DNA of 40,330 bases, from the IMG/VR virus record IMGVR_UViG_3300045988_047360; one strand, written 5' to 3'. How positions within the stretch are numbered: position 1 is the first letter of the stretch; every line of letters starts with the position of its first letter. The notes below the pieces were generated by a model. The model made no database searches. It saw nothing but the letters and a program-made list of their open reading frames with translations, and had not been told where the DNA came from. This document shows, piece after piece, positions 2,565-35,093 of this stretch. Source of the stretch: a virus. The position numbers were made by a program, and so were the translations under genes.

Positions 2565-2698
2565 CTTCCGCTCCTCCATCCTTCCCATATTCAAACATTT
2601 GTTCTTTGTAAAAGTATATCATTCTTGTACTTGCTTTGCAACTGCAAAATGCACAATGTTTTGGGCCAATAGAAAATAATAAAATAGGGGGAAATTTT

Positions 2699-3787
2699 AT
2701 GGATTTTATTGATCAGTTAAAGCAGTTTTCTAAGCGCGTCGATTCAATGAAAAACAATGTGCAAACCGAAGAAGCAACCAAAACCGCATTGATTATGCCG
2801 TTTTTTTCTATGCTTGGATACGATGTTTTTAATCCACAGGAATTTGTCCCGGAATTTACTGCTGACGTTGGGATCAAAAAAGGTGAAAAAGTTGATTATG
2901 CTATTATAAAAGATGAAGAACCAGTTATCCTCATTGAGTGCAAAGCCATTACAGAGGATTTAGGGAAGCACGATTCCCAGCTTTTCCGCTATTTTGGGAC
3001 AACATCTGCTAAGTTTGCGATTTTGACAAACGGTCAGTATTATCGTTTTTACACTGATCTGGATAACCCAAATAAAATGGACGAAACGCCTTTTTTGTCT
3101 ATTAACATTTTAGATATCCGGGAAAACCAGGTGCCTGAACTAAAAAAATTCTGTAAATCCGTTTTTGACGTTGATTCAATTTTCAGCACAGCATCGGAGC
3201 TTAAATATGTACACGAATTTAAAGATATGTTCTCCCAGCAGCTAAACAATCCAACCGATGAATTTGTGAAGTTTTTCTTGACTGGCTGCTGGACTGGGCA
3301 GAAAACGCAAAATGTAATTGAAAAATTCAGGCCAATATTAAAGAAAGCTCTTAATGACCAGATCAGCGAGCTGATGAATGATAAAATCAAATCTGCGTTA
3401 GGTGGAGCTGGTGGAAGTGTTACAGTCCCGGCCACAGAAGAAAAAGTGGCAGAAGATGATTCGCAAGATGCATCTGCCGAAGAAAAGAAAGTTCATGCTA
3501 TCATTACTACCGAAGAAGAGCTTGAAGCATATTTTATTATTAAGAATTTGATGAGTGACATAGTAGACATCCACGATATCACTTATAAGGACACGGAATC
3601 TTACATAAATATCCTTTATAAATCAAACTCTCGCAAGTGGATTTGCAGGCTTCGATTGAGCGACACTACAAAAACAATAAGCATTCCAAACGAATCTAAG
3701 AAAGAAGTTAAGTACACGTTAGCTGATATATACGATATCCCTCAATATAAAGATCAGCTGCAACAAGTTTTGAAGCGTTACTTATAA
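2699..3787 (+). CDS. PD-(D/E)xK nuclease-fold protein with type I restriction HsdR N-terminal-like domain (362 aa)
   Basis: TEEATKTALIMPFFSMLGY, VDYAII and VILIECK (D..ExK) motifs. AT-rich gene inside the lysogeny module. Confidence 0.65.
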   Translation: MDFIDQLKQFSKRVDSMKNNVQTEEATKTALIMPFFSMLGYDVFNPQEFVPEFTADVGIKKGEKVDYAIIKDEEPVILIECKAITEDLGKHDSQLFRYFGTTSAKFAILTNGQYYRFYTDLDNPNKMDETPFLSINILDIRENQVPELKKFCKSVFDVDSIFSTASELKYVHEFKDMFSQQLNNPTDEFVKFFLTGCWTGQKTQNVIEKFRPILKKALNDQISELMNDKIKSALGGAGGSVTVPATEEKVAEDDSQDASAEEKKVHAIITTEEELEAYFIIKNLMSDIVDIHDITYKDTESYINILYKSNSRKWICRLRLSDTTKTISIPNESKKEVKYTLADIYDIPQYKDQLQQVLKRYL

Positions 3788-4544: not shown

Positions 4545-4946
4545 ATGACGATTCAAGAAATGTGCAATGAAAAAAGAATTGCTCTGGGCCTGACCCATCA
4601 GAACATCGCGGATCAGGCAGAAATGCCGCTGCAAACCGTGCGGAACTTCTTCTCCCGCGCGTCGAAAGCGCCGTCCATCTACACCACCGCGCAGATATGC
4701 GCCGTGCTGGGCGTGTCGCTGGATCAGTTCTTCGGCATTTGCGAACGACTGACGCAGAAAGAACAGCACATTGCCGATTTGCAAGCCTACATTGCAGATC
4801 AGGAATCTACCATTCAGGATTTGCACCGCCGCGCCCGTAGTATGCGCCGCGCAATTTTGGTGTTAGGCTGCGTGGCAATCGGCCTGCTGGTTTGGTGTAT
4901 TTATTTTGATTTGCATTGCCTTGATATTGGGTTTTATAGGAGGTAA
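4545..4946 (+). CDS. XRE-family HTH protein with coiled-coil and C-terminal transmembrane helix
   Basis: LTHQNIADQAEMPLQTVRNFFS is a helix-turn-helix. C-terminal AILVLGCVAIGLLVWCIYF is hydrophobic. The stop lies 5 nt before the integrase start. Confidence 0.6.
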   Translation: MTIQEMCNEKRIALGLTHQNIADQAEMPLQTVRNFFSRASKAPSIYTTAQICAVLGVSLDQFFGICERLTQKEQHIADLQAYIADQESTIQDLHRRARSMRRAILVLGCVAIGLLVWCIYFDLHCLDIGFYRR

Positions 4947-4950
4947 AGCA

Positions 4951-6060
4951 ATGGAGTGTATCAAATGTAAAGCCCCGCTGCCAGAGGGCGCGATCTTCTG
5001 CCCCATGTGCGGCAAAAAGCAAAACGAAAAGAAGTCGAATATTCACAAAAGAGGAAATGGCCAAGGAACGGCGATTCGTAGAGGAAAAACATGGACAGCC
5101 ATATGGACAGAAAATATTTATATTGACGCTGAAACGAAAGGGATAAAGCAAGTACGGAAATGGAAGGGAGGATTTACTTCAAAAACAGCTGCCTTAGCTT
5201 ATGCGGCTACCCCTTCGGAAGATCCCGTAAAAATTCCAACACTTCGGGATTATTGGAACAGCTGGGTAAATGGCGGCTTTACTAAATTATCTGATTCTAA
5301 AAAATGCGCACAAAAAATTGCATGGAAAAAACTTTCTTCCATTGCCGGCATGCCAGTGGATAAAATAACAATCGATACATTGCAAGAATGCATTGATGAA
5401 AAAGCTAAAACGTATTATCCCGCAAAAGACATGAAAACTGTTTTATCTCATTTGCTAAAGCGTGCAATTGCAGAAGGGTATATTGGCACTAATCTTTCCG
5501 AATTTATTACGCTTCCAAAGTTAAAGGAAACGGAAGCCAACCCATTTACAGAAAAAGAATTAGCTGCTTTTTGGGAAGCATATGGAAATGGTGATAGAAT
5601 TATAGGCTTTGTATTACTAATGATTTATACCGGTATGATGCCGGGCGAAATATTTATCTTAAAATCTGACATGATTGATTGGGAAAAGCGAGAAATTGTT
5701 AAAGCGGGTATCAAAACCGCAAAGAGAAAAGAAATCCCAATTGTTTTCCCAGAAATGATCGCGCCTGTTCTCGATAATTTAGTGCAATCATCGAGTAGTG
5801 CTGCCGGGTATGTTCTTGGAATGAATAAAGATAAATTTTATAAAGAGTACCACGAATCTATAAAAAAAGCGGGTGCAAGAGATTTGCCGCCCTATTCATG
5901 TAGACATACTACAGCAACAGCGCTTGCTCTTGGGAATATTGCACCAAGCGTAATTCAAAACGTTATGCGGCACGCTAAATTTTCCACTACTCAGCGATAT
6001 ATTCACCCGGATAATAAAAGCGCTCATGACGCAATTAACACGATTGGCAAAGGAGTGTAA
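4951..6060 (+). CDS. int: Tyrosine recombinase/integrase with N-terminal zinc ribbon
   Basis: AGGAGG RBS. CIKC..CPMC zinc ribbon. C-terminal catalytic-type motifs (YSCRHTTATAL, VMRHAKFSTTQRYIH). attP lies immediately downstream. Confidence 0.85.
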   Translation: MECIKCKAPLPEGAIFCPMCGKKQNEKKSNIHKRGNGQGTAIRRGKTWTAIWTENIYIDAETKGIKQVRKWKGGFTSKTAALAYAATPSEDPVKIPTLRDYWNSWVNGGFTKLSDSKKCAQKIAWKKLSSIAGMPVDKITIDTLQECIDEKAKTYYPAKDMKTVLSHLLKRAIAEGYIGTNLSEFITLPKLKETEANPFTEKELAAFWEAYGNGDRIIGFVLLMIYTGMMPGEIFILKSDMIDWEKREIVKAGIKTAKRKEIPIVFPEMIAPVLDNLVQSSSSAAGYVLGMNKDKFYKEYHESIKKAGARDLPPYSCRHTTATALALGNIAPSVIQNVMRHAKFSTTQRYIHPDNKSAHDAINTIGKGV

Positions 6061-22465: not shown

Positions 22466-23608
22466 TCAGGTTTTTGCCGTTACGTCAGCGCTGCCGGACT
22501 TGAGCGCATGATAGTTGCCGTCGCACTCAACAACGGTCACCTTCTGGCCAGTGGCAATGGTCAGGTCTTTCTTGCCGTCCCAATCAAGCCAGCCCGCCAC
22601 ATTGTCGCCGTAAGCGACGGTCACAGCGGACGCGCCAGAAGCGTACTTATACTTGTTGCCCGCCGCAGCCTTTGCGGGGGAAACAGTCAGTTTAGTATCG
22701 CCGCTCTTGGTACCGGAGGCAGAAGTAACCGTCAGCGAGCCAAGCTTTCCGCTGTCGATGGTGCCGACAACTACGCCGTCGATGCGCTCGGCAAACAGCT
22801 CAATGCCGTTGATCACGGTGTCAGACGCGGTCATGTTGGTGTAATCAGGCTCCTCGTGGATGCCGATGTAGCCGGTCGCGTCGGTGGTAAAGGTGAAGAC
22901 CTCCTGCAGATCGGCGCCGTTGACGGGGATGTAGTAGAGGACGATGTTGTCCTTAGCCGTGGCGTAAATCTTGCCCTTGGGGACGCTGGCATTCATGATC
23001 AGGGTGCCAAGGCCCAGGAAGTTTTCCACATAGGACATACCGAATGCGGTCTGCACGGTGATGTTGGCCGTAGACAGGTAATCCGCGACGTCCAGCGGAT
23101 TCATGAAGTAGACCGCGCCGATCTCGTCGTCCTCGAAAAGAACCTGCAAATTGCCCCACGCCTGCGCAAGAACAGTCTGGAAGTTCTTACCGCTCACCGC
23201 GCCGGTGCCGGTCGAGAGGAAGTCAAAGAAGCTCTTGCGGATACCCTTCTGCACGTCCTTGAGCATTTCGTCGGTGGTCATCTCCACTGCCTGATCGTAG
23301 CCACGGTCGGTGATCGCTTCGGCGGAGGTCGCCTTGCGCCACTTCTTGAGCGTGATCTCCTTGTAGTTCACGGCCTCGGTCTTGTAATGGGAAAGGGGGA
23401 TGGTGTCACCCTCTGCCACAACGCCGCTTTCAAGCGTGCCGGTCGCCTTGTAGCTCTTGAGCACAGTGCCCGCCTGCTTGGCGATCTTACGGGTCACGCC
23501 GAGCGCCTCCATCAGCTTCTTGATGGAGTAACCGAACATTTCGGTAAATTCGATCTCGCGCACGCGGGCGAGGTCATTTTTCTTGATCAGATTGGTTTCA
23601 GCAGCCAT
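22466..23608 (-). CDS. Major capsid protein (HK97-fold type) with C-terminal Ig-like domain
   Basis: 380 aa following the scaffold gene. C-terminal LTVTSASGTKSGDTKLTVSP..YKYA..WDGKKDLTIATGQKVTVVE is Ig-like. Confidence 0.8.
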   Translation of the reverse strand: MAAETNLIKKNDLARVREIEFTEMFGYSIKKLMEALGVTRKIAKQAGTVLKSYKATGTLESGVVAEGDTIPLSHYKTEAVNYKEITLKKWRKATSAEAITDRGYDQAVEMTTDEMLKDVQKGIRKSFFDFLSTGTGAVSGKNFQTVLAQAWGNLQVLFEDDEIGAVYFMNPLDVADYLSTANITVQTAFGMSYVENFLGLGTLIMNASVPKGKIYATAKDNIVLYYIPVNGADLQEVFTFTTDATGYIGIHEEPDYTNMTASDTVINGIELFAERIDGVVVGTIDSGKLGSLTVTSASGTKSGDTKLTVSPAKAAAGNKYKYASGASAVTVAYGDNVAGWLDWDGKKDLTIATGQKVTVVECDGNYHALKSGSADVTAKT

Positions 23609-23610
23609 AA

Positions 23611-24228
23611 TTAGCCTCCGTTCTTATTTTCAAAAAGATTGATGTTTGCAGCGATCGCCGCGCGGCGCTCTGCTCTGTCCTTGATCTCCATGATCTGATC
23701 TTTGGTCATTGCGCCGCCGCCGGTGTTCGCCGGGGGAGTGGCGGGATTCGCTCCCTTTGTATGCGTGGTAGAGACAAGCCCCTTATAGGTGCCCTCGATC
23801 AGCGCATCAAGGCTCTTGGTGTCCTTGATTTTGTAGCCGTCCAGCTCCAATGCGGCCATTTCTTCGCCGCAGCCGCGCATTGCAAGGTCGAGATTCGCGC
23901 CGGTGATATTTTTGCTTTCAAAGTAAGCCCGCACGGCCTTTTCCTTTGCCGCCTTGCTTTCCTTTGCGGTGATGTCGGACTTAAAGGCTTCAAAGGCCGA
24001 GTGTTCCTTCTCGTACTTCTCCTTATAACCGCCATCACCTGCCGCCTTAAGGTCGTCCAGTTCCTTCTGGACGCCGGGCAGCTTCTCCGCGTCCGCCTTG
24101 TACTTCGTGAGATCGTCCTTGAGGGGGTCGACCACGCCCAGATGCAGCGCAACCAAGCGATTTTCGATTTCTTCGGTGCAAGCCTCGCCGAGAATATTTC
24201 TGATTTCCGCTCTCGTAAATTTCGCCAT
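23611..24228 (-). CDS. Scaffolding protein (GP20-like)
   Basis: AAAGGAG RBS. Charged helical protein MAKFTRAEIRNILGE..KYKADAEKLPGVQKELDDLK. Directly upstream of the capsid gene. Confidence 0.7.
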   Translation of the reverse strand: MAKFTRAEIRNILGEACTEEIENRLVALHLGVVDPLKDDLTKYKADAEKLPGVQKELDDLKAAGDGGYKEKYEKEHSAFEAFKSDITAKESKAAKEKAVRAYFESKNITGANLDLAMRGCGEEMAALELDGYKIKDTKSLDALIEGTYKGLVSTTHTKGANPATPPANTGGGAMTKDQIMEIKDRAERRAAIAANINLFENKNGG

Positions 24229-24314
24229 GTTATTCGTTCTCCTTTTCTTTGGCCCCAATTCTTCGGGGGCGAACGTTGTATAAAAACCGCTGTGCTTCGC
24301 GGGTTTTACCTGTT

Positions 24315-24680
24315 CTAAATTGCGTTTGCCATTTCCCACGCCTTGTGGATTTTTGCCCCTTGCCACGCAATCCAGTCGACAAGCTCCTCGTTTTTGCACC
24401 ATGCCCCTTCAAAAGAAAGTGCGCTATCCAAAAGACCGCTTTCGCTGAAAAATGCGTGGACAATTTCATGCCGTAGCGTTTGCTTTTGAGCCTCTCTTGC
24501 CGTTTCTACTGGCTCGTTTTCCCACCCCTTATAGGTTGTCATGTCGCAAATTACGATTTGCTTCAAAAGGTAGTCGCAATATCCGTCAATGCTCCTTCGC
24601 TCAAATGCCTCATCGTCGCCGTATTTTTTAACGACAATTTCGTAATCCGTGCCTAAAATGTTGACTTTGCTGTTACCCAT
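24315..24680 (-). CDS. Small HExxH zinc-metallopeptidase-like protein
   Basis: AGGAGG RBS. LRHEIVHAFFSESGL motif. 121 aa. Confidence 0.5.
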   Translation of the reverse strand: MGNSKVNILGTDYEIVVKKYGDDEAFERRSIDGYCDYLLKQIVICDMTTYKGWENEPVETAREAQKQTLRHEIVHAFFSESGLLDSALSFEGAWCKNEELVDWIAWQGAKIHKAWEMANAI

Positions 24681-24692
24681 GCGTTGCCTCCT

Positions 24693-24738
24693 GAAAACAA
24701 AAGAGCCAACCTGTAAGAAATCCTTACAAGTTGGCTCT
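24693..24738 (-). terminator. Rho-independent terminator/attenuator inside the head module
   Basis: Long hairpin agagccaac.tgtaag..cttaca.gttggctct followed on the minus strand by TTTGTTTTC, directly before the RBS of the HExxH gene. Confidence 0.6.
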
Positions 24739-24760: not shown

Positions 24761-24892
24761 TTACGCAGAAGTCGTATATTTAATTGCTTTTTTTACTTCC
24801 AAAACGATGTACCCATCGCCTTTTCGCCGGATCTCAGCATCATTGCCGCGTTTAATGATGGCTTCAATAGCCTTGATCGTTTCATTATCCAT
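24761..24892 (-). CDS. Small hypothetical protein (43 aa)
   Basis: Not in the ORF track. MDNETIKAIEAIIKRGNDAEIRRKGDGYIVLEVKKAIKYTTSA. 8-nt overlap with the upstream stop. Confidence 0.4.
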   Translation of the reverse strand: MDNETIKAIEAIIKRGNDAEIRRKGDGYIVLEVKKAIKYTTSA

Positions 24893-25283
24893 TTTTCAGT
24901 TCCTTTTTCAGAATCTCCCGATATTGGTCTGCATGCTCCGCTGCGGCCGGTTTCAAAAAGGGCTGTGCCTTGCTGCCGCTCGTCCGGTGCCAGTTGCCCT
25001 TTGCATCCTGATATACCCACGGCGTCGGCCTGCCGCCCGGATAATATTTTCCGGTTCCCAGCTCCACATAAGCGCCATAATCGGAATTTGTTCCAACATA
25101 AACGGAACGCCCTTCACTGTCTACCTGATGTGTAATACTGTTCCTTAAGTTTCCGGTGTCCACCGGGCACAGCTTTTTTGCATACCCCTCTGCCACCAAA
25201 CCGCACTTTTCCAGCCCGCGCAGCAGCGCCGCCTTGATTGCGGCGGAAACCTCTTTGCTGTTGTCGGTAATTTCAATACTCAT
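24885..25283 (-). CDS. HK97 gp10-family protein
   Basis: AEGYAKKLCPVDTGNLRNSITHQVD..VYVGTNSDYGAYVELGTG matches the gp10 family pattern. Confidence 0.65.
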   Translation of the reverse strand: MSIEITDNSKEVSAAIKAALLRGLEKCGLVAEGYAKKLCPVDTGNLRNSITHQVDSEGRSVYVGTNSDYGAYVELGTGKYYPGGRPTPWVYQDAKGNWHRTSGSKAQPFLKPAAAEHADQYREILKKELKNG

Positions 25284-25456
25284 CGCTCACCCCATGTTTC
25301 AGCAATAAGCGTACCATCCTTCTTGCACTCTCGAACAACTATTCGATTGTCGTCGATATAGCAAATTTCCGAATAATCGCCGCCGGACGGTGTTTTCCCG
25401 TAAACGCGCTCTTTAACAAGTTTTCCATTGTCATCATAGAACTTTTTTGTTTTCAT
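25280..25456 (-). CDS. Small protein (58 aa), candidate immunity/partner of the MuF C-terminal domain
   Basis: Not in the ORF track. MKTKKFYDDNGKLVKERVYGKTPSGGDYSEICYIDDNRIVVRECKKDGTLIAETWGER. AT-rich. ATGA coupling to the next gene. Confidence 0.4.
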   Translation of the reverse strand: MKTKKFYDDNGKLVKERVYGKTPSGGDYSEICYIDDNRIVVRECKKDGTLIAETWGER

Positions 25457-25470
25457 AAGCGCTCACCGCC

Positions 25471-27156
25471 TTACTTTAAGAAAATATCAATGATTTTCGC
25501 TCTGTTCGGGAACGTCTTTCTGAATGCGTCCGGATCTTTAACAAATTCGGCCATGCTTTCCGCAAAATCCTCAGAATTAGCGTTTTCTCCATAAACCGTA
25601 ACCGATTTTTTACCAGATAACTTCTTATCCTCGGCCATTGCATTTGTCCACCATGTATAATCCGAGAATCGTGTGCCATTTACGCTATTGTCCGTATCAA
25701 CTTTATGCCCGATTTCATGGCAATAAGTTCGCACAACATAATCGTCGTTATGCGGATAATCATAACGCCAAAAATTGATGTCTTTTCCGCCCGTAGCATA
25801 ACTACCTCGGAATTTTTTATATCGCTTTCTCCAGTATTTGTCTTGCGGATTATGCACATCTTGAAATATGATTTGCTTCTGCCCCATATCCCGCAATTTT
25901 TCTGGAACCTTGCTCCAAAGCTCAACCGCTTTCTCTGGGGTCATCGCCTGGTGCGCCTTGTTATAACTTGTCGGGAATATGAACTCTGTTCCATCCGGAG
26001 TTTTATAAACCGTGGCATTCGCAGATTTTCTTACTCCATTTTCCGTCCCATCACTAAAATCATATTTCCGCGTCTCTGCGGTACAATCCGAAATAGTAAT
26101 TTGCAACGGTTTGGTTTCTTTTATTATATCAGATTTTGCCGCGCTTGCAACTTGCTTTGTATCTTTCTTCCATCCCGCCCATTCCGCATAGGACATGTTT
26201 GAGATAACCTCTGCTTGCCCCGTATCGGCGTTTCTGGCGCGTCTTTGTGCATCTGAGGTGTCTATCCCATCCACAGCAGCAATCATCGTGCAGCGGCAGT
26301 TATAAATCTCCCGCGGCGGGCCTTGCGGATCTCCCGGAAATCGGCAGCCGTTAGAGAACTTATCGTCTTGCTCTACCTGTTCACCGTCCAGCATGGCGTG
26401 AGAATGACGTGTGCGGCTGTCCAGCGTGGCAAGCCATTCCTTTTTGAGCTTAATCCCCATCTTCTGCGCCGCCGCGTAGCTGTCCATGCGCCCGGCGTTC
26501 TGCGCGCCGGTCACGGCGGTTCGGGCGGTTCGTATCGCGCTGTCGCGGTTCATGGTGGTGATCCGCTTTTGCAGATCATCTGACATGCCTTTGATGCTTT
26601 TGCCTTGTAGGATAGAGCTGGTCACGCTGGCCGTAATCTGCTTTTTGCCCCACGCAAGGTCGATACCGCGCTTCAAAGCGCGTTTTGGCGGGTAATAGGG
26701 CATCAGATCCGGCTGCTCTACCATAAGCCGCTTGACAGTCTGCTCGTCCCACAGATCAAAGCCGACGTTACCCGCGATCTGTTCAATAGTGTATGCCGCA
26801 TAGTTACGGTTCAGGCTGTAAATGCCTGGTGTGGCATCGTTGGTATAAGACACAGCAACGGCGTTCGCGTCTGTCATACGACGCGCCACCTTATCGCGCA
26901 AGGCTTGATAGCGCTCACCGCGTGCAATCTGATTGAGCCGCCATTGCTTATAATCGGATTCCGTCCATTCCTTCCCGTTCTGCACCGTGCCGATCAGAGC
27001 TTGCATTTCCTCATCGCGCTGCTTGAACTGCTCAAAGTATGTGTTGATAGTCCCTTGCAGCTCTTTTCCAGTCTCTCGATACAGCTTTGCAATGCGCCGC
27101 TCCAGCGCCGCCAGCTTTTTATCGGTCAACTGATGCCCAAGATCAGGCGTTGCCAT
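25471..27156 (-). CDS. MuF/SPP1 gp7-like minor head protein fused to a C-terminal zincin (anthrax lethal factor-like) domain
   Basis: N-terminal part has LDSRTRHSHAMLDGE (MuF). C-terminal part has HEIGH (25705-25719) and EDFAESMAEF, like HEFGH..EFFAEAF of the lethal factor family. Confidence 0.7.
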   Translation of the reverse strand: MATPDLGHQLTDKKLAALERRIAKLYRETGKELQGTINTYFEQFKQRDEEMQALIGTVQNGKEWTESDYKQWRLNQIARGERYQALRDKVARRMTDANAVAVSYTNDATPGIYSLNRNYAAYTIEQIAGNVGFDLWDEQTVKRLMVEQPDLMPYYPPKRALKRGIDLAWGKKQITASVTSSILQGKSIKGMSDDLQKRITTMNRDSAIRTARTAVTGAQNAGRMDSYAAAQKMGIKLKKEWLATLDSRTRHSHAMLDGEQVEQDDKFSNGCRFPGDPQGPPREIYNCRCTMIAAVDGIDTSDAQRRARNADTGQAEVISNMSYAEWAGWKKDTKQVASAAKSDIIKETKPLQITISDCTAETRKYDFSDGTENGVRKSANATVYKTPDGTEFIFPTSYNKAHQAMTPEKAVELWSKVPEKLRDMGQKQIIFQDVHNPQDKYWRKRYKKFRGSYATGGKDINFWRYDYPHNDDYVVRTYCHEIGHKVDTDNSVNGTRFSDYTWWTNAMAEDKKLSGKKSVTVYGENANSEDFAESMAEFVKDPDAFRKTFPNRAKIIDIFLK

Positions 27157-28519
27157 CGCCGTTCACCCCCGGCGCGTCCGGTTCTCCAAAGCTCCGGTCA
27201 ATCTCTTCCGCCGCCTTGCGCTTCATCATGTCCTCAAACTGGTCAATATCGCCGTTTATGGTCAGCAGTTTCTTCGTAATGTACTCATCATCGTAATACT
27301 GAGCACCCAGAAGAATTGCCTGTGTTTCTTCGGTTTTGTTGATGATCTGATTGCGCGTGTAGCTGGGTTGATCGTCAATACCGGCCAGCCGCAGGATCTC
27401 AACAATAAAGCGCGTGACTTCGGCTTCAAATTTATCCGTTTTCAGATCGAGCGGCACATAGCTCGCCTTGATAGCCGTCGCGGTCTGATTGCCCGCTGAT
27501 ACTGCAGAAGCATCGAAACACTGAAAATCTTCATAAAGTTTCTTTTTCAGCATGTCGATGGTAGTATTCGTCCCCTCATACGGGGCCTCGACGGTGTGTG
27601 CCTCCGCCTTCGCTCCATCATCGCCGTCGGCATGCGCCACATGAAGCGTTTTCAGGCGCTCCACGAATTTTGCATCATCCAGATCATCCATGCCGCCGCA
27701 GTTGGAAATCACCCAATAAATCAAATTCCCCTCATCCACGTTGTTGACCATGTTGGACGAAGCAAGATCGAGTGCATCAATCGTATTGCGCTTGCCTGCA
27801 ATTTCCGAAAGGCAATGCCTGTTGTTTTTCAGCGGAACAACAGGGAAACCCGGATAATTCCCGCCGTCATAAATTTCAGTCTCGCCGACTTCTGCCTTAC
27901 GGACAATGAGCTTATAACTGCGCTTCTGATGTAATACGCTCATGTCTTTATTTTTTGGCTGGAAATACTCCGTAAAGCCGTCAATCTCGTACAACGTCGC
28001 CCGCAAAGGCTTATCCGGCGCGACCTGCCAGAACCGAATACCAGCTTTCAAAGCGCCGTCCTCTTCATCGTACAGCGGCACAAATTCCAAGAGGGAAAAC
28101 ACGCGGAGATGCGTCAAATCCCAAAATCCAAACGATACGCCCGCGATCTTCGCCGCTCTGGCAGCATCCATGACCTCCTGGTCAAAATCTGCGCACAATT
28201 TCTTGCCTGTGGTCTCATCCGAGAACGTCACACCGTTGCCAAGCAGATAGGAAACTTCCTGATCGACCGCCATGCCGAAGAACCGACTTGCCAGCTTGTG
28301 ATTCGCTGTCCACATATCCTTGTGGGCTTTGCCCTGCATATCATACAAAATCTTTTCGTAGCGATTGATGGAAGGGTTCAGGCCATCGTAATATAGCTCT
28401 GCATCAGCCGCAGCCTTATATGCGCCTGATGCACGATGATCGTTGATTGCGCTCCGAATAAAGGCAATGCGATCCTGTTCGTTCTCGCCGGCGTTTAACA
28501 AATCCTGATAGGTTTTCAT
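27143..28519 (-). CDS. Portal protein (SPP1 gp6-like)
   Basis: 458 aa between terminase and MuF. N-terminal ..AELYYDGLNPSINRYEK..NHKLASRFFGMAVDQEVSYLLGNGV pattern. Confidence 0.8.
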   Translation of the reverse strand: MKTYQDLLNAGENEQDRIAFIRSAINDHRASGAYKAAADAELYYDGLNPSINRYEKILYDMQGKAHKDMWTANHKLASRFFGMAVDQEVSYLLGNGVTFSDETTGKKLCADFDQEVMDAARAAKIAGVSFGFWDLTHLRVFSLLEFVPLYDEEDGALKAGIRFWQVAPDKPLRATLYEIDGFTEYFQPKNKDMSVLHQKRSYKLIVRKAEVGETEIYDGGNYPGFPVVPLKNNRHCLSEIAGKRNTIDALDLASSNMVNNVDEGNLIYWVISNCGGMDDLDDAKFVERLKTLHVAHADGDDGAKAEAHTVEAPYEGTNTTIDMLKKKLYEDFQCFDASAVSAGNQTATAIKASYVPLDLKTDKFEAEVTRFIVEILRLAGIDDQPSYTRNQIINKTEETQAILLGAQYYDDEYITKKLLTINGDIDQFEDMMKRKAAEEIDRSFGEPDAPGVNGDGNA

Positions 28520-28529
28520 TCAACCGCTC

Positions 28530-29807
28530 CTATCTGTTCCAAATGGGTATATAGTCACTTCTCCCTTTTTGCCCAGGCGTTTTCCATATCGATTCTGTAG
28601 CATATCTGCACGCATCGATATGGTGATTATTTGCGTCAGGATACCCGCTGATAATGTCTCCCTCTCGGTTCCTCTCGTACTCGTAAGAAATAAACTCGTC
28701 CGCTGTCTTTGGGCATCTCACTTTGTCAATCACGATGCTTGATAAGCCTTGCATCCATTGCATAGAACGCTCAACACTGCCGGGGCCTTTTCTCGCACTA
28801 ATACAGCGCAGGCCAAATTTCTGATAATCTGCGACGCTTTTGGGTTCTGCGCCGTCTGCTGTGATGAGATCATCCCGCGTAAGGCCATAATCAAGCAACA
28901 TATCTGCCGTTTCTTTATTACGCTTCTTATTTGCGGTCATCTCCGCAAAGATGTACAAAACGCGCCGTGCCGCGTCATAATGGCACTGGTTGAACGCCCA
29001 CGGGTCAGGAAAATATCCCCAGTCAACGCCATTATATATGCGGTCAAAATGCGAAATCTCTTCGTCCGTGATCTCTCGCAGCTCAAGATTCTCAAACACA
29101 TTGCCGCCCGTGCCAACCGAAATACCAAGGTATTCGTGCTGATATGCACGCTCATCCGCCGCTTTAAGGTGCTCCGCTTCGTCAATGAACTGCTGCCCTA
29201 ACCATTCAGGCGGCGCTTGCAGGTACGTTGACTTGTGGCACAAACGATCGGCGCGCTCTTCCAAGCTGTCTTTATTGGCCCAGTTGTCGCGGCTGATCGG
29301 CGGGTTGTAGCTTTCAAAGTTCCAGAAAACCGTGCCGCCGCGCATGGTGGACTGCAGGATATTACGGATTTCCGCCCGCCCGGCAAACTGGTCTTTTTCC
29401 TCGAAGTGCGTCACGGCAATATAACCGAACGGTACTTTGATGGACTTGATCTTCATGGGGTCATCAGCGCCACGGAACATGATCTTCTGTCCGGTTGGCT
29501 TATAGATCAGCTCCATCGGGGATACTTTGGCATCCCAAAACGCCGCCATTCCCAGCTCGCCGATTGCCCAAATATATTGCGCATATACGCTGTCTCGAAT
29601 GGTGTTTGCCACTTTACGCAGAACCAGTGCATGTGTGCCCGGGTTTTGAATCAGCAGCAACGGGACAACGATGGAGATGAAAGACGATTTCAGCGAACCG
29701 CGCCCGCCGCTCTCGTCATAATGCGTGTGGCCATGCCGGAAGACGTCATGTGCAACGTCATAAAACGCAGGGCCTATTTTTTCTGACAAGCGAATTTCAG
29801 ACATCAA
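28530..29807 (-). CDS. terL: Terminase large subunit (PBSX-type)
   Basis: Walker A GGRGSLKS, 425 aa, follows the small subunit with an overlap. Confidence 0.85.
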   Translation of the reverse strand: MMSEIRLSEKIGPAFYDVAHDVFRHGHTHYDESGGRGSLKSSFISIVVPLLLIQNPGTHALVLRKVANTIRDSVYAQYIWAIGELGMAAFWDAKVSPMELIYKPTGQKIMFRGADDPMKIKSIKVPFGYIAVTHFEEKDQFAGRAEIRNILQSTMRGGTVFWNFESYNPPISRDNWANKDSLEERADRLCHKSTYLQAPPEWLGQQFIDEAEHLKAADERAYQHEYLGISVGTGGNVFENLELREITDEEISHFDRIYNGVDWGYFPDPWAFNQCHYDAARRVLYIFAEMTANKKRNKETADMLLDYGLTRDDLITADGAEPKSVADYQKFGLRCISARKGPGSVERSMQWMQGLSSIVIDKVRCPKTADEFISYEYERNREGDIISGYPDANNHHIDACRYATESIWKTPGQKGRSDYIPIWNR

Positions 29808-33636: not shown

Positions 33637-33818
33637 CACATTTCCTCCTTCAACCAGCTTTCCCATGTTACCAGCCAATCGTCTTTTGCGCTTGACAGCC
33701 CTTCCGGATATTTCAAATTTAAAGAACACCCCTCCGCTTCAAGGGCGTCATCTACCGCTTTTTCGATCAACATTGCCAGCAACTCAGGGGATCTTGCATA
33801 ATTTTCAAAATTTGTCAT
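33636..33818 (-). CDS. Small acidic hypothetical protein (60 aa)
   Basis: MTNFENYARSPELLAMLIEKAVDD. ATGA coupling upstream. Confidence 0.45.
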   Translation of the reverse strand: MTNFENYARSPELLAMLIEKAVDDALEAEGCSLNLKYPEGLSSAKDDWLVTWESWLKEEM

Positions 33819-34693
33819 TCTTCGAACCCTCCAAGAACTTCCTGACCCGGTAAAACACCGTCCTCCATCCACCAATGAAACACATCTACGCCGGAACGCC
33901 ATGAATGCGCATCCTTTCCCTTTGCCATGCGCCGCGCCAGCATCTTATCAAACGCTCGTATATATGCAGCCTTAAACTTTGGATAGCGGGCAAACTCCAT
34001 AATCCGTGATGATGATGCCATGGGGCATCCGATGCAGCCAACCCGCCGAAAGCCCTCGCAATACAGCGGGTTCATGCAGATTTTCTCGGCGGCGGCGTAA
34101 TCCAGAACATCCGCTTCCTGCCAGTCAATGATGGGGTTGACTACTCTCTCCCCCTTTAGCTGGCAGGTTTCAAACAATCTGCGCTTCTCGTCATTGTCAT
34201 TGAGTAGAACAAAATTATTTTTTCTCCCAGTGGTCGCCAAAACTTCCAGAGTTCCCCGGTTTTTCTTCCGGGCTGTACTTTCCGCCCAGCGGACACCGGT
34301 CGCAATAAATCGCCCTTTCCCTCCACCTTCTTTAAGCTCGGCGCAGCAATACCGCGCCAGCCTGGTAGGCGGCATAAGCTTCCGAGGGATCAGGTTCCAC
34401 ATGGTCACGCGGTTCCCATCTGACTGGACGTGCTTGTCCACCGTGCACTTAATGCCCTTGCCTTCAAGTCGTTTGAGCGTGTCATACACATGTCGTACCG
34501 TCTCCGGTGCGTCCGCAGTAGTCAGCGAGTGCAGCACCTCAAACGGTATGCCGCTGATCTCTGCCAGGTGCAGAAGCACATCGCTGTCCTTGCCGCCGCT
34601 GTATGTGATCACCAGCGGCTGCTTAAAAAGCCGCAGCGACATATCCGACGCCGCCTTTAACCGTTCGATTGCAACCGTTCCCAAGTCACTCAT
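33815..34693 (-). CDS. PAPS reductase / PP-loop ATP-pyrophosphatase family protein
   Basis: SGGKDS PP-loop (VITYSGGKDSDVLLHL). C-terminal Cys cluster (CEGFRRVGCIGCP). Confidence 0.75.
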   Translation of the reverse strand: MSDLGTVAIERLKAASDMSLRLFKQPLVITYSGGKDSDVLLHLAEISGIPFEVLHSLTTADAPETVRHVYDTLKRLEGKGIKCTVDKHVQSDGNRVTMWNLIPRKLMPPTRLARYCCAELKEGGGKGRFIATGVRWAESTARKKNRGTLEVLATTGRKNNFVLLNDNDEKRRLFETCQLKGERVVNPIIDWQEADVLDYAAAEKICMNPLYCEGFRRVGCIGCPMASSSRIMEFARYPKFKAAYIRAFDKMLARRMAKGKDAHSWRSGVDVFHWWMEDGVLPGQEVLGGFEE

Positions 34694-35093
34694 GCGGCTC
34701 CACCCCCGGCGCTGCCGGCAACGGCATCCAGTGGGTGATTTCAACAGCCGCGTCCACCAAATCAAATTCGTCTTTCCCGTATTCCGCCAGATAATCGAGA
34801 AGTACAGGTGAATCCCAATACCAACGTCCTCCGTAAAAACACGCAGTACCAGAGAACGGAACGCCCTTTATTTTTTCATAATACGGTTCCGGGTCTCTGT
34901 TTACCCACACCACGTTTACAAGTACTCGTTCCTCCGGCAGCCGCTCCGTCACCGGGATCCATTGGGGCAGATGCTCCAACCGCTGAATCGCAGTATAAAT
35001 ATCATCCCCAAGCGTAATTGGGCATTCCCATTCATTGGCACGGGCCCATTCTGCGTGTTCCCGCAGCGCCTGAATCAATTCCTGATCTGTCAT
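34686..35093 (-). CDS. DUF551-domain protein
   Basis: WIPVTERLPEE..HWMPLPAAP pattern. Confidence 0.6.
   Translation of the reverse strand: MTDQELIQALREHAEWARANEWECPITLGDDIYTAIQRLEHLPQWIPVTERLPEERVLVNVVWVNRDPEPYYEKIKGVPFSGTACFYGGRWYWDSPVLLDYLAEYGKDEFDLVDAAVEITHWMPLPAAPGVEPHE

Follow-up and report, generated by a model that had tools for sequence, protein, structure and literature searches.

A MuF head protein with a lethal-factor-like zincin domain and a strictly linked small partner gene: a candidate capsid-carried protease effector in a temperate phage

In the 40,330-nt stretch of viral DNA analysed here in full (IMG/VR virus record IMGVR_UViG_3300045988_047360; hereafter, the window), one gene on the minus strand encodes a MuF minor head protein that is fused to a C-terminal zinc metallopeptidase (zincin) domain resembling anthrax lethal factor (LF), and it is directly followed by a small gene for a 58-aa protein. 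With moderate confidence, we read the two as a capsid-carried protease effector or toxin with its cognate inhibitor or immunity protein. This kind of system is already known; what appears to be new is the zincin family itself and its invariably linked partner of about 57 aa, predicted to be all-beta, and both families appear to have escaped annotation by Pfam, NCBIfam and PHROG. The elements of the locus are as follows.

25471–27156, minus strand: MuF-zincin fusion, 561 aa (open reading frame (ORF) call; MuF or minor head matches in Pfam, PHROG and NCBIfam)
26167–27156, minus strand: N-terminal carrier, aa 1–330, a MuF/SPP1 gp7-type head protein
26281–26640, minus strand: Phage_Mu_F core, aa 173–292 (Pfam, E = 3.8e-20)
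25284–26160, strand not set: swapped AT-rich cassette of linker, zincin domain and partner gene (G+C content, blastn breakpoints)
25474–26097, minus strand: zincin (gluzincin) domain, aa 354–561, predicted (AlphaFold model AF2, Foldseek)
25696–25719, minus strand: HEIGHKVD, comprising the two His predicted to bind zinc, the catalytic Glu and, three residues past the second His, an invariant Asp
25558–25593, minus strand: YGENANSEDFAE motif, Y522–E533 (profile alignment to LF chain 2l0r; conservation in homologs)
25280–25456, minus strand: 58-aa partner gene, candidate inhibitor or immunity protein
26123–26150, minus strand: promoter-like site TTGCAA-16-TG-TATAAT at the 5′ junction of the cassette (10/12 positions, extended -10)
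24885–25283, minus strand: HK97 gp10-like tail-completion gene, the conserved 3′ flank of the cassette

The MuF carrier and its zincin domain

An earlier note on this DNA, made from the letters alone, had read the N-terminal part of the fusion as a MuF/SPP1 gp7 domain and the AT-richer remainder as a gluzincin of the lethal-factor type, and both assignments held, as did everything else that the note had stated about the sequence itself. Residues 173–292 match Phage_Mu_F with 73 bits against a cut-off of 29.6 (E = 3.8e-20), the 561-aa protein also matches TIGR01641 (SPP1 gp7; NCBIfam, E = 8e-12), and many PHROG families labelled “minor head” or “head morphogenesis” are matched as well. The HEIGH motif lies exactly where the note had placed it, at 25705–25719 (residues 480–484), within a region of G+C content 0.40–0.44, and the sequence EDFAESMAEF begins at E529, 45 residues past H484.

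A database search yielded 32 homologous sequences for an alignment (A1) of the domain of about 205 aa, which is strongly conserved: the H, E and H of HExxH are invariant, as are the Asp three residues further on, SYATG and NPxD..W, while Y191, N194 and E198-D-F-A (fragment numbering) are nearly invariant. Since HExxHxxD and Y..N...EDFAE are both retained in all 35 non-redundant homologs, the zincin motifs are, judged by conservation, more than a chance occurrence.

The AF2 model of the domain, built from A1, is confident (predicted local distance difference test score (pLDDT) 89.8, predicted TM-score (pTM) 0.86) and ordered from fragment residue 23 onwards. When it was compared with the PDB by Foldseek, LF filled ranks 1–20 (E = 1.2e-5 to 1e-4, probability 1.0, query TM-score (TMq) ~0.40–0.43), and PPEP-1/Zmp1 of C. 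difficile (family M34) was found at E ~1e-4 to 2e-3 (TMq 0.45–0.50, target TM-score (TMt) up to 0.58); the superposition of the model on LF or PPEP-1 is thus moderate, not close. Searching the PDB sequences with a profile retrieved 9urd_A, a “substrate import-associated zinc metallohydrolase” from Bacteroides, at E = 1e-3 and the LF chain 2l0r only at E = 0.12. The LF profile alignment sets HEagHyiD over HEFGHAVD and teYgensnaEDFAeS over tsYGrtneaEfFAEa, pairing YG..N..E.FAE of the zincin with YGRTNEAEFFAE in LF, and places Y522 and E529 on the LF motif YG....E.FAE. On this alignment, Y522 corresponds to LF Tyr728, the catalytic Tyr, and E529 to LF Glu735, the third zinc ligand. A single-sequence phmmer search of the PDB sequences gave nothing meaningful and no LF match; the link to LF emerges only from the profile and fold searches.

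The comparison with ATLF, proposed in the same note, came out divided, with the likeness of fold and motif upheld and a match to the Pfam ATLF model not obtained. The C-terminal 230 aa have no above-threshold match in Pfam, NCBIfam or PHROGs; ATLF is absent from the Pfam table of the window protein at E ≤ 1 and at E ≤ 0.1, nor is it among the 25 Pfam families most often matched by 25 members of the zincin family (five further families stand outside these 25). All Pfam matches of those 25 members are sub-threshold, with Peptidase_Mx1 in 12 and Peptidase_M90 in seven of them, and in the window domain itself Peptidase_M90 scores 15.7–17.6 bits, below its cut-off of 26.2. Because no Pfam model, ATLF included, reaches its curated cut-off, we use “lethal-factor-like” for a modelled likeness of fold and motif and not for family membership. 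The domain is predicted to work like a gluzincin of the LF/MtfA type, albeit one that lies outside M34 and M90 by the curated models, and we regard it, on the strength of the model, as an LF-like gluzincin of an uncurated family.

This family is large. An exhaustive search with the zincin profile recovered 1616 representative proteins at E ≤ 1e-3 (167 at E ≤ 1e-30), in which the domain is almost always C-terminal and the proteins measure 200–860 aa; the GenBank phage collection contributed one homolog, unannotated. Two giant proteins, P0242 (7713 aa) and P0262 (7686 aa), contain four zincin copies each, P0220 (825 aa) has the order min_cap2-ART-zincin, i.e., the zincin is C-terminal to an ADP-ribosyltransferase (ART) on a Phage_min_cap2 carrier, and in P0235 (862 aa) the domain occurs in a MuF protein with an intein-like insertion. 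The zincin-bearing genomes include metagenome-assembled genomes of Clostridia, Oscillospiraceae, Lachnoanaerobaculum, Selenomonadales and Collinsella.

The partner gene and the exchangeable cassette

The partner ORF (25280–25456) begins 14 nt past the MuF stop codon, after a Shine-Dalgarno-like stretch, GGTGAG, and its TGA overlaps the ATG of the gp10-like gene (ATGA). In order to assess linkage, we compiled 101 zincin loci from genomes, metagenomes and viral contigs and searched them with hidden Markov models (HMMs) of both proteins. A partner homolog is found immediately downstream of the zincin in 99 out of 99 loci with downstream sequence, the window included (35 non-redundant loci at 90% identity); in the remaining three, the sequence stops at the zincin gene. 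The match to the partner HMM starts at most 54 nt from the zincin stop codon or overlaps it. By this gene-neighbourhood evidence, the partner is strictly linked to the zincin.

We have found 845 clusters of partner homologs, all of about 56–70 aa and unnamed, and the 120 of them that were listed contain no Pfam domain; the window partner itself matches no family above threshold in Pfam, NCBIfam or PHROGs. In an alignment of 46 sequences, T22, P23, G25, Y28, S29, E30, E43, C44, G48 and E53 are invariant. The AF2 model of the partner (pLDDT 96.2) is all-beta, with five strands, and gave no significant Foldseek match in the PDB (best E = 0.19). The window partner is an unusual variant that has an additional hairpin at its N-terminus and lacks a stretch of 10 residues. 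An identity with MORN_2 or YwqK-type proteins was considered and rejected, the single match covering 15 residues at 15.5 bits against a cut-off of 29.6 (E = 0.019). The idea of a cysteine switch was weakened by the replacement of the Cys of the R-E-C motif by Tyr or Phe in three of 35 homologs, in all of which the Glu is kept. A mirror-tree comparison of zincin and partner identities gave r = 0.55 (Mantel 0/2000), not clearly above the value for zincin and carrier (Pearson 0.63, Spearman 0.32), and we have not used it as evidence of co-evolution.

The zincin-partner pair is not confined to one type of carrier: it rides on Phage_Mu_F, Phage_min_cap2 and VG15 proteins, and while these carriers are only 23–30% identical, the zincin and the partner are ~60–65% identical. 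Pairs with intact catalytic motifs are also kept in chromosomal remnants devoid of phage genes. Three samples share a chromosomal site (L188:3898–4177; also L189 and L190), located between a Na/Ca-exchanger gene and a DUF975 gene, where an intact partner ORF stands as an orphan beside a zincin cut down to its last ~25 residues. The likeness to an immunity gene, which the earlier note had seen in the placement of the 58-aa gene, is supported by the linkage in all 99 loci across carriers and by this orphan. As for the neighbourhoods, L001–L004 (5001–6376), L005, L009 and L011 are prophage remnants in which a truncated carrier-zincin gene and a partner are found near type I-C-like CRISPR-Cas genes, a Cas9 gene, dxr-ispG-proS (isoprenoid/proS) or glycoside hydrolase genes.

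The zincin and the small downstream gene were probably acquired together, as one exchangeable cassette, as suggested by base composition and by alignment with related phages. The G+C content falls from 0.55–0.57 (26200–27000) to 0.40–0.44 (25300–26200) and returns to ~0.52 in the next gene. In blastn comparisons with relatives that carry other modules, homology stops at 26115–26178 (at 26252 in L165) and restarts at 25253–25283, at the start of the gp10-like gene. These recombination breakpoints coincide with the G+C trough, and also with the limits of 25280–26170 that had been assigned to the element beforehand.

At least 591 close relatives of the N-terminal 330 aa of the MuF protein occur in IMG/VR, and we compared the best 80 of them (84–91% identical). 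Their C-termini fall into 12 unrelated groups, besides a short MuF protein without any extension, whereby the polymorphism surmised from the single sequence is made visible and the note's own refuting case, a C-terminus that is not polymorphic, falls away:

19 loci: ADP-ribosyltransferase module (Pfam ADPrib_exo_Tox, E = 4e-16)
10 loci: the zincin module of the window (no Pfam match above threshold)
9 loci: CdiA_C-like module (weak Pfam match)
6 loci: DUF6883-like module (sub-threshold Pfam match)
3 loci: JAB-like module (weak Pfam match)
19 loci together: five other HExxH modules (no Pfam match)
8 loci together: two further modules (one scanned with Pfam, no match)
6 loci: short MuF protein, no extension

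Any resemblance of the five other HExxH modules to the zincin of the window is marginal at best. For most modules, the slot between MuF and the gp10-like gene also holds a small ORF that belongs to the module, and these small ORFs are unrelated to one another; several in L102–L181, of 51–102 aa, are unannotated. The zincin modules of L104 and L135, and another module in L105, have no small ORF in the slot. Taken as a set, L102–L181 place at least 12 different MuF C-terminal cassettes on a single backbone, a natural library in which five are unclassified HExxH modules.

The promoter-like site at 26123–26150, the best one in the region, falls within the codons for QVASAAKSDIIK, right on the 5′ junction of the cassette. 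It could drive partner expression in lysogens, or it could be a coincidence. Among the relatives, the motif is restricted to zincin and ART cassettes with the KDTKQVASAAKS linker, though not found in all of those, and the number of promoter-like sites in the region does not exceed the expectation from shuffled sequences; we therefore treat the site as a lead only.

Proposed mechanism and rival explanations

In the mechanism that we propose, the C-terminal ~205 aa of the MuF minor head protein would be an active LF-like zinc endopeptidase. The MuF part would carry the fusion protein into the capsid, and the protease would enter the next host cell alongside the DNA and cleave one or a few host proteins there. 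The 58-aa all-beta partner, produced from the same late operon, would bind and block the protease in the producing cell; possibly, it would do so in lysogens too, providing immunity against related phages, or protect cells that hold an orphan copy. Packaging and injection of the fusion would follow the example of SPP1 gp7 and of MuF toxins, and it is from the precedent of the latter that we infer the inhibition by the partner, the toxicity and the existence of a host target.

Some observations run counter to a capsid-carried protease effector with a cognate inhibitor. We could relate the partner to no known fold of immunity proteins or inhibitors, and the correlation of zincin and partner identities (r = 0.55) is no stronger than simple linkage predicts. 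The zincin cassettes of L104 and L135, on the same MuF backbone, do without a partner gene, and MuF-borne zincins therefore need not endanger their producer. Members of the family are also found within giant proteins of many domains and behind an ART domain, and a processing role has been put forward by Iyer et al. for zincins of polyvalent proteins (PMC5512222). Moreover, Jamet et al. expect peptidase modules to be only mildly toxic (PMC5576092).

The same facts can be read as those of a host-takeover or anti-defence effector: the protease would cut one particular protein of host defence or regulation, or tilt the choice between lysis and lysogeny, and the partner would merely silence it during assembly, with no “immunity” involved. 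Its architecture and delivery evidence being those of the protease effector with a cognate inhibitor, this explanation is plausible and, on present data, inseparable from the latter, although we judge it the less likely of the two. Jamet et al. propose such a role for MuF modules of low toxicity, e.g., peptidases (PMC5576092), MuF fusions are viewed as injected effectors by Iyer et al. (PMC5512222), and the zincin cassettes without a partner on the same backbone would suit it. The persistence of zincin-partner pairs, and of an orphan partner, in phage-free chromosomal remnants argues against it, being easier to understand as addiction or immunity than as a function at the time of infection. 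A different doubt concerns the small protein, which might be no inhibitor at all: it could serve the zincin as a cofactor or as a chaperone for folding or packaging, or be delivered with it as a substrate or adaptor. Linkage by itself cannot separate inhibition from activation, and the gluzincin MtfA (M90) is regulated via binding of a protein partner, Mlc, albeit the window domain matches M90 weakly. Yet an intact orphan beside a decayed zincin is hard to explain for a cofactor deprived of its enzyme, and the size and position of the gene fit the immunity genes of tested MuF toxins (PMC12226406), which makes a non-inhibitory partner improbable.

A cis-acting role, in which the zincin would cut the fusion itself or neighbouring domains in the capsid or after injection, maturing MuF or another effector, is suggested by the fourfold occurrence of the family in proteins of ~7,700 aa and by its position C-terminal to the ART domain in P0220. 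Autoproteolysis is also proposed for the metallopeptidase (MPTase) domains of polyvalent proteins by Iyer et al., who describe one clade with an Asp three residues past HExxH (PMC5512222). In the window, however, the zincin is the sole cargo, and therefore nothing else needs release; a domain that cleaves itself would not be expected to have a strictly linked, dedicated trans partner, and relatives build the same head with short MuF proteins or with non-protease modules. Owing to the sole cargo and the dedicated trans partner, we give self-processing in the window a slim chance. That the zincin is the essential head-maturation (prohead) protease of the phage is highly improbable: some of the matching PHROG families are labelled “head maturation protease”, but those matches fall mainly on the MuF part, and phages whose head genes are nearly identical lack the cassette or have another in its place. 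Because the cassette is accessory, we have rejected this role.

Going further, and tentatively, the partner may found a new family of gluzincin inhibitors, perhaps with the invariant E43 of R-E-C placed in the active site. In that case, the two proteins would make up the first MuF effector system of the protease type, in which an endopeptidase injected from the capsid cuts a defined protein of its host among the gut Clostridia, and chromosomal orphan partners would confer immunity against phage-delivered proteases. MuF toxins have been described, yet hardly tested, as a possible way for temperate phages to bring enzymes into cells, and the locus offers a clean and abundant protease-type example from phages of human-gut Clostridia, with sharp cassette boundaries and with natural controls on the same backbone, where the same head genes are combined with other modules or with none. 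If the proposed reading is true, the locus provides a new zincin/inhibitor pair and a way to find out which host proteins are cut by the proteases that phages deliver.

Phage context and comparison with known systems

By its gene content, the phage of the window is temperate, since it encodes a tyrosine integrase and an antirepressor. The closest isolate is Flavonifractor phage Chenonceau, with 68% nucleotide identity across the portal and MuF genes and an identical gene order; it has its own MuF extension and small ORF. The other genes concerned are listed below.

28530–29807, minus strand: large terminase, head-gene block
27143–28519, minus strand: SPP1-type portal, head-gene block
Between the gp10-like gene and the scaffold, minus strand: two small ORFs
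23611–24402, minus strand: scaffold
22466–23608, minus strand: major capsid protein
4906–6060, in the window: tyrosine integrase
955–1713, in the window: antirepressor

In this head module, a 121-aa ORF with a HEIVH motif (24315–24680, minus strand) matches phrog_1233 (unknown function) and has no match in Pfam; it may be a second, mini-zincin-like moron. It sits within 24312–24693, a second insertion/deletion segment: L104, L105, L112 and L113 lack the ORF (homology skips from 24694 to 24311), and L135 and L138 have it. A strong terminator-like hairpin (24702–24738, minus strand; 17-bp stem and T-run) is located just upstream, at the edge of the variable segment and in the middle of the head gene block. 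The C-terminal domain of the major capsid protein matches the C-terminal domain of the S-layer protein SbsC (E = 2.4e-11) and may be a capsid decoration or Ig-like domain. Elsewhere, the gene at 2636–3787 (plus strand), which adjoins the integrase gene, specifies a product with a type I restriction HSDR_N-like domain, and that at 33815–34765 (minus strand) a product with a 3′-phosphoadenosine-5′-phosphosulfate (PAPS) reductase domain.

With regard to known zincins, Iyer et al. 2017 report zincin MPTase domains in polyvalent proteins of phages and plasmids, linked to MuF, ART and other effectors (PMC5512222). Compared by description only, the window domain resembles one of their clades in the Asp past HExxH (D487) and in a His before the catalytic helix (H469), and the giant proteins with four zincin copies recall polyvalent proteins; a dedicated small partner gene, as in the window, is not described for these MPTases in the part of the text consulted. 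The closest relatives by sequence profile are MtfA (Peptidase_M90) and the Bacteroides Peptidase_Mx1/SusD-associated zinc metallohydrolase (PDB 9urd), which belong to the same LF-like gluzincin group; the matches are all below curated cut-offs, and they are proteins of cells, one a peptidase bound by a regulator and the other a lipoprotein, whereas the window zincin is part of a phage-borne cassette. As in M34 (LF, PPEP-1/Zmp1), the HExxH of the window domain is predicted to lie on one helix, with a Glu ligand ~45 residues on in an E-x-F-A-E helix and a Tyr seven residues ahead of that Glu; the Asp three residues past the second His has its counterpart in LF HEFGHAVD. In contrast to M34, identity is 14–19%, the TM-score only 0.40–0.57, and the Pfam ATLF model is not matched; the window zincin has an extra N-terminal beta subdomain and the conserved SYATGG and NPxDxYW, and its setting is a cytoplasmic phage capsid rather than that of a secreted toxin.

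MuF-borne toxins were defined by Zhang et al. 2012, who listed the LF-like toxin domain only with delivery by Photorhabdus virulence cassettes (PVC) and the type II secretion system (T2SS), not with MuF (PMC3482391). In the survey of Jamet et al. 2017, MuF toxins are polymorphic and tied to temperate phages and to small downstream ORFs, and metallopeptidase domains occur in 20% of 191 of them (PMC5576092). A survey by known toxin domains would probably file the window zincin as an “unknown C-terminal extension”, since it reaches no Pfam threshold. In the two papers on MuF toxins consulted for this point, the only modules described as tested are RelA-like (Apk2), a (p)ppApp-synthetase, and in the literature searched we found no experimentally characterised MuF metallopeptidase module. 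The active site of MuF-Apk2 is occluded by an immunity protein encoded downstream, and the toxin is thereby neutralised (Apk2/IapK/Aph1 system; PMC12226406). Unlike the tested toxins, the module of the window is a zincin below Pfam thresholds, and its partner belongs to an unnamed all-beta family of ~57 aa. It shares with the MuF polymorphic toxins the N-terminal MuF head domain, the swapped C-terminal module, the small downstream gene and the setting in a temperate Firmicutes phage. As in those toxins, the C-terminal extension varies among close relatives and is common to other carriers, and the small gene directly downstream goes with the module, other cassettes coming with other small ORFs.

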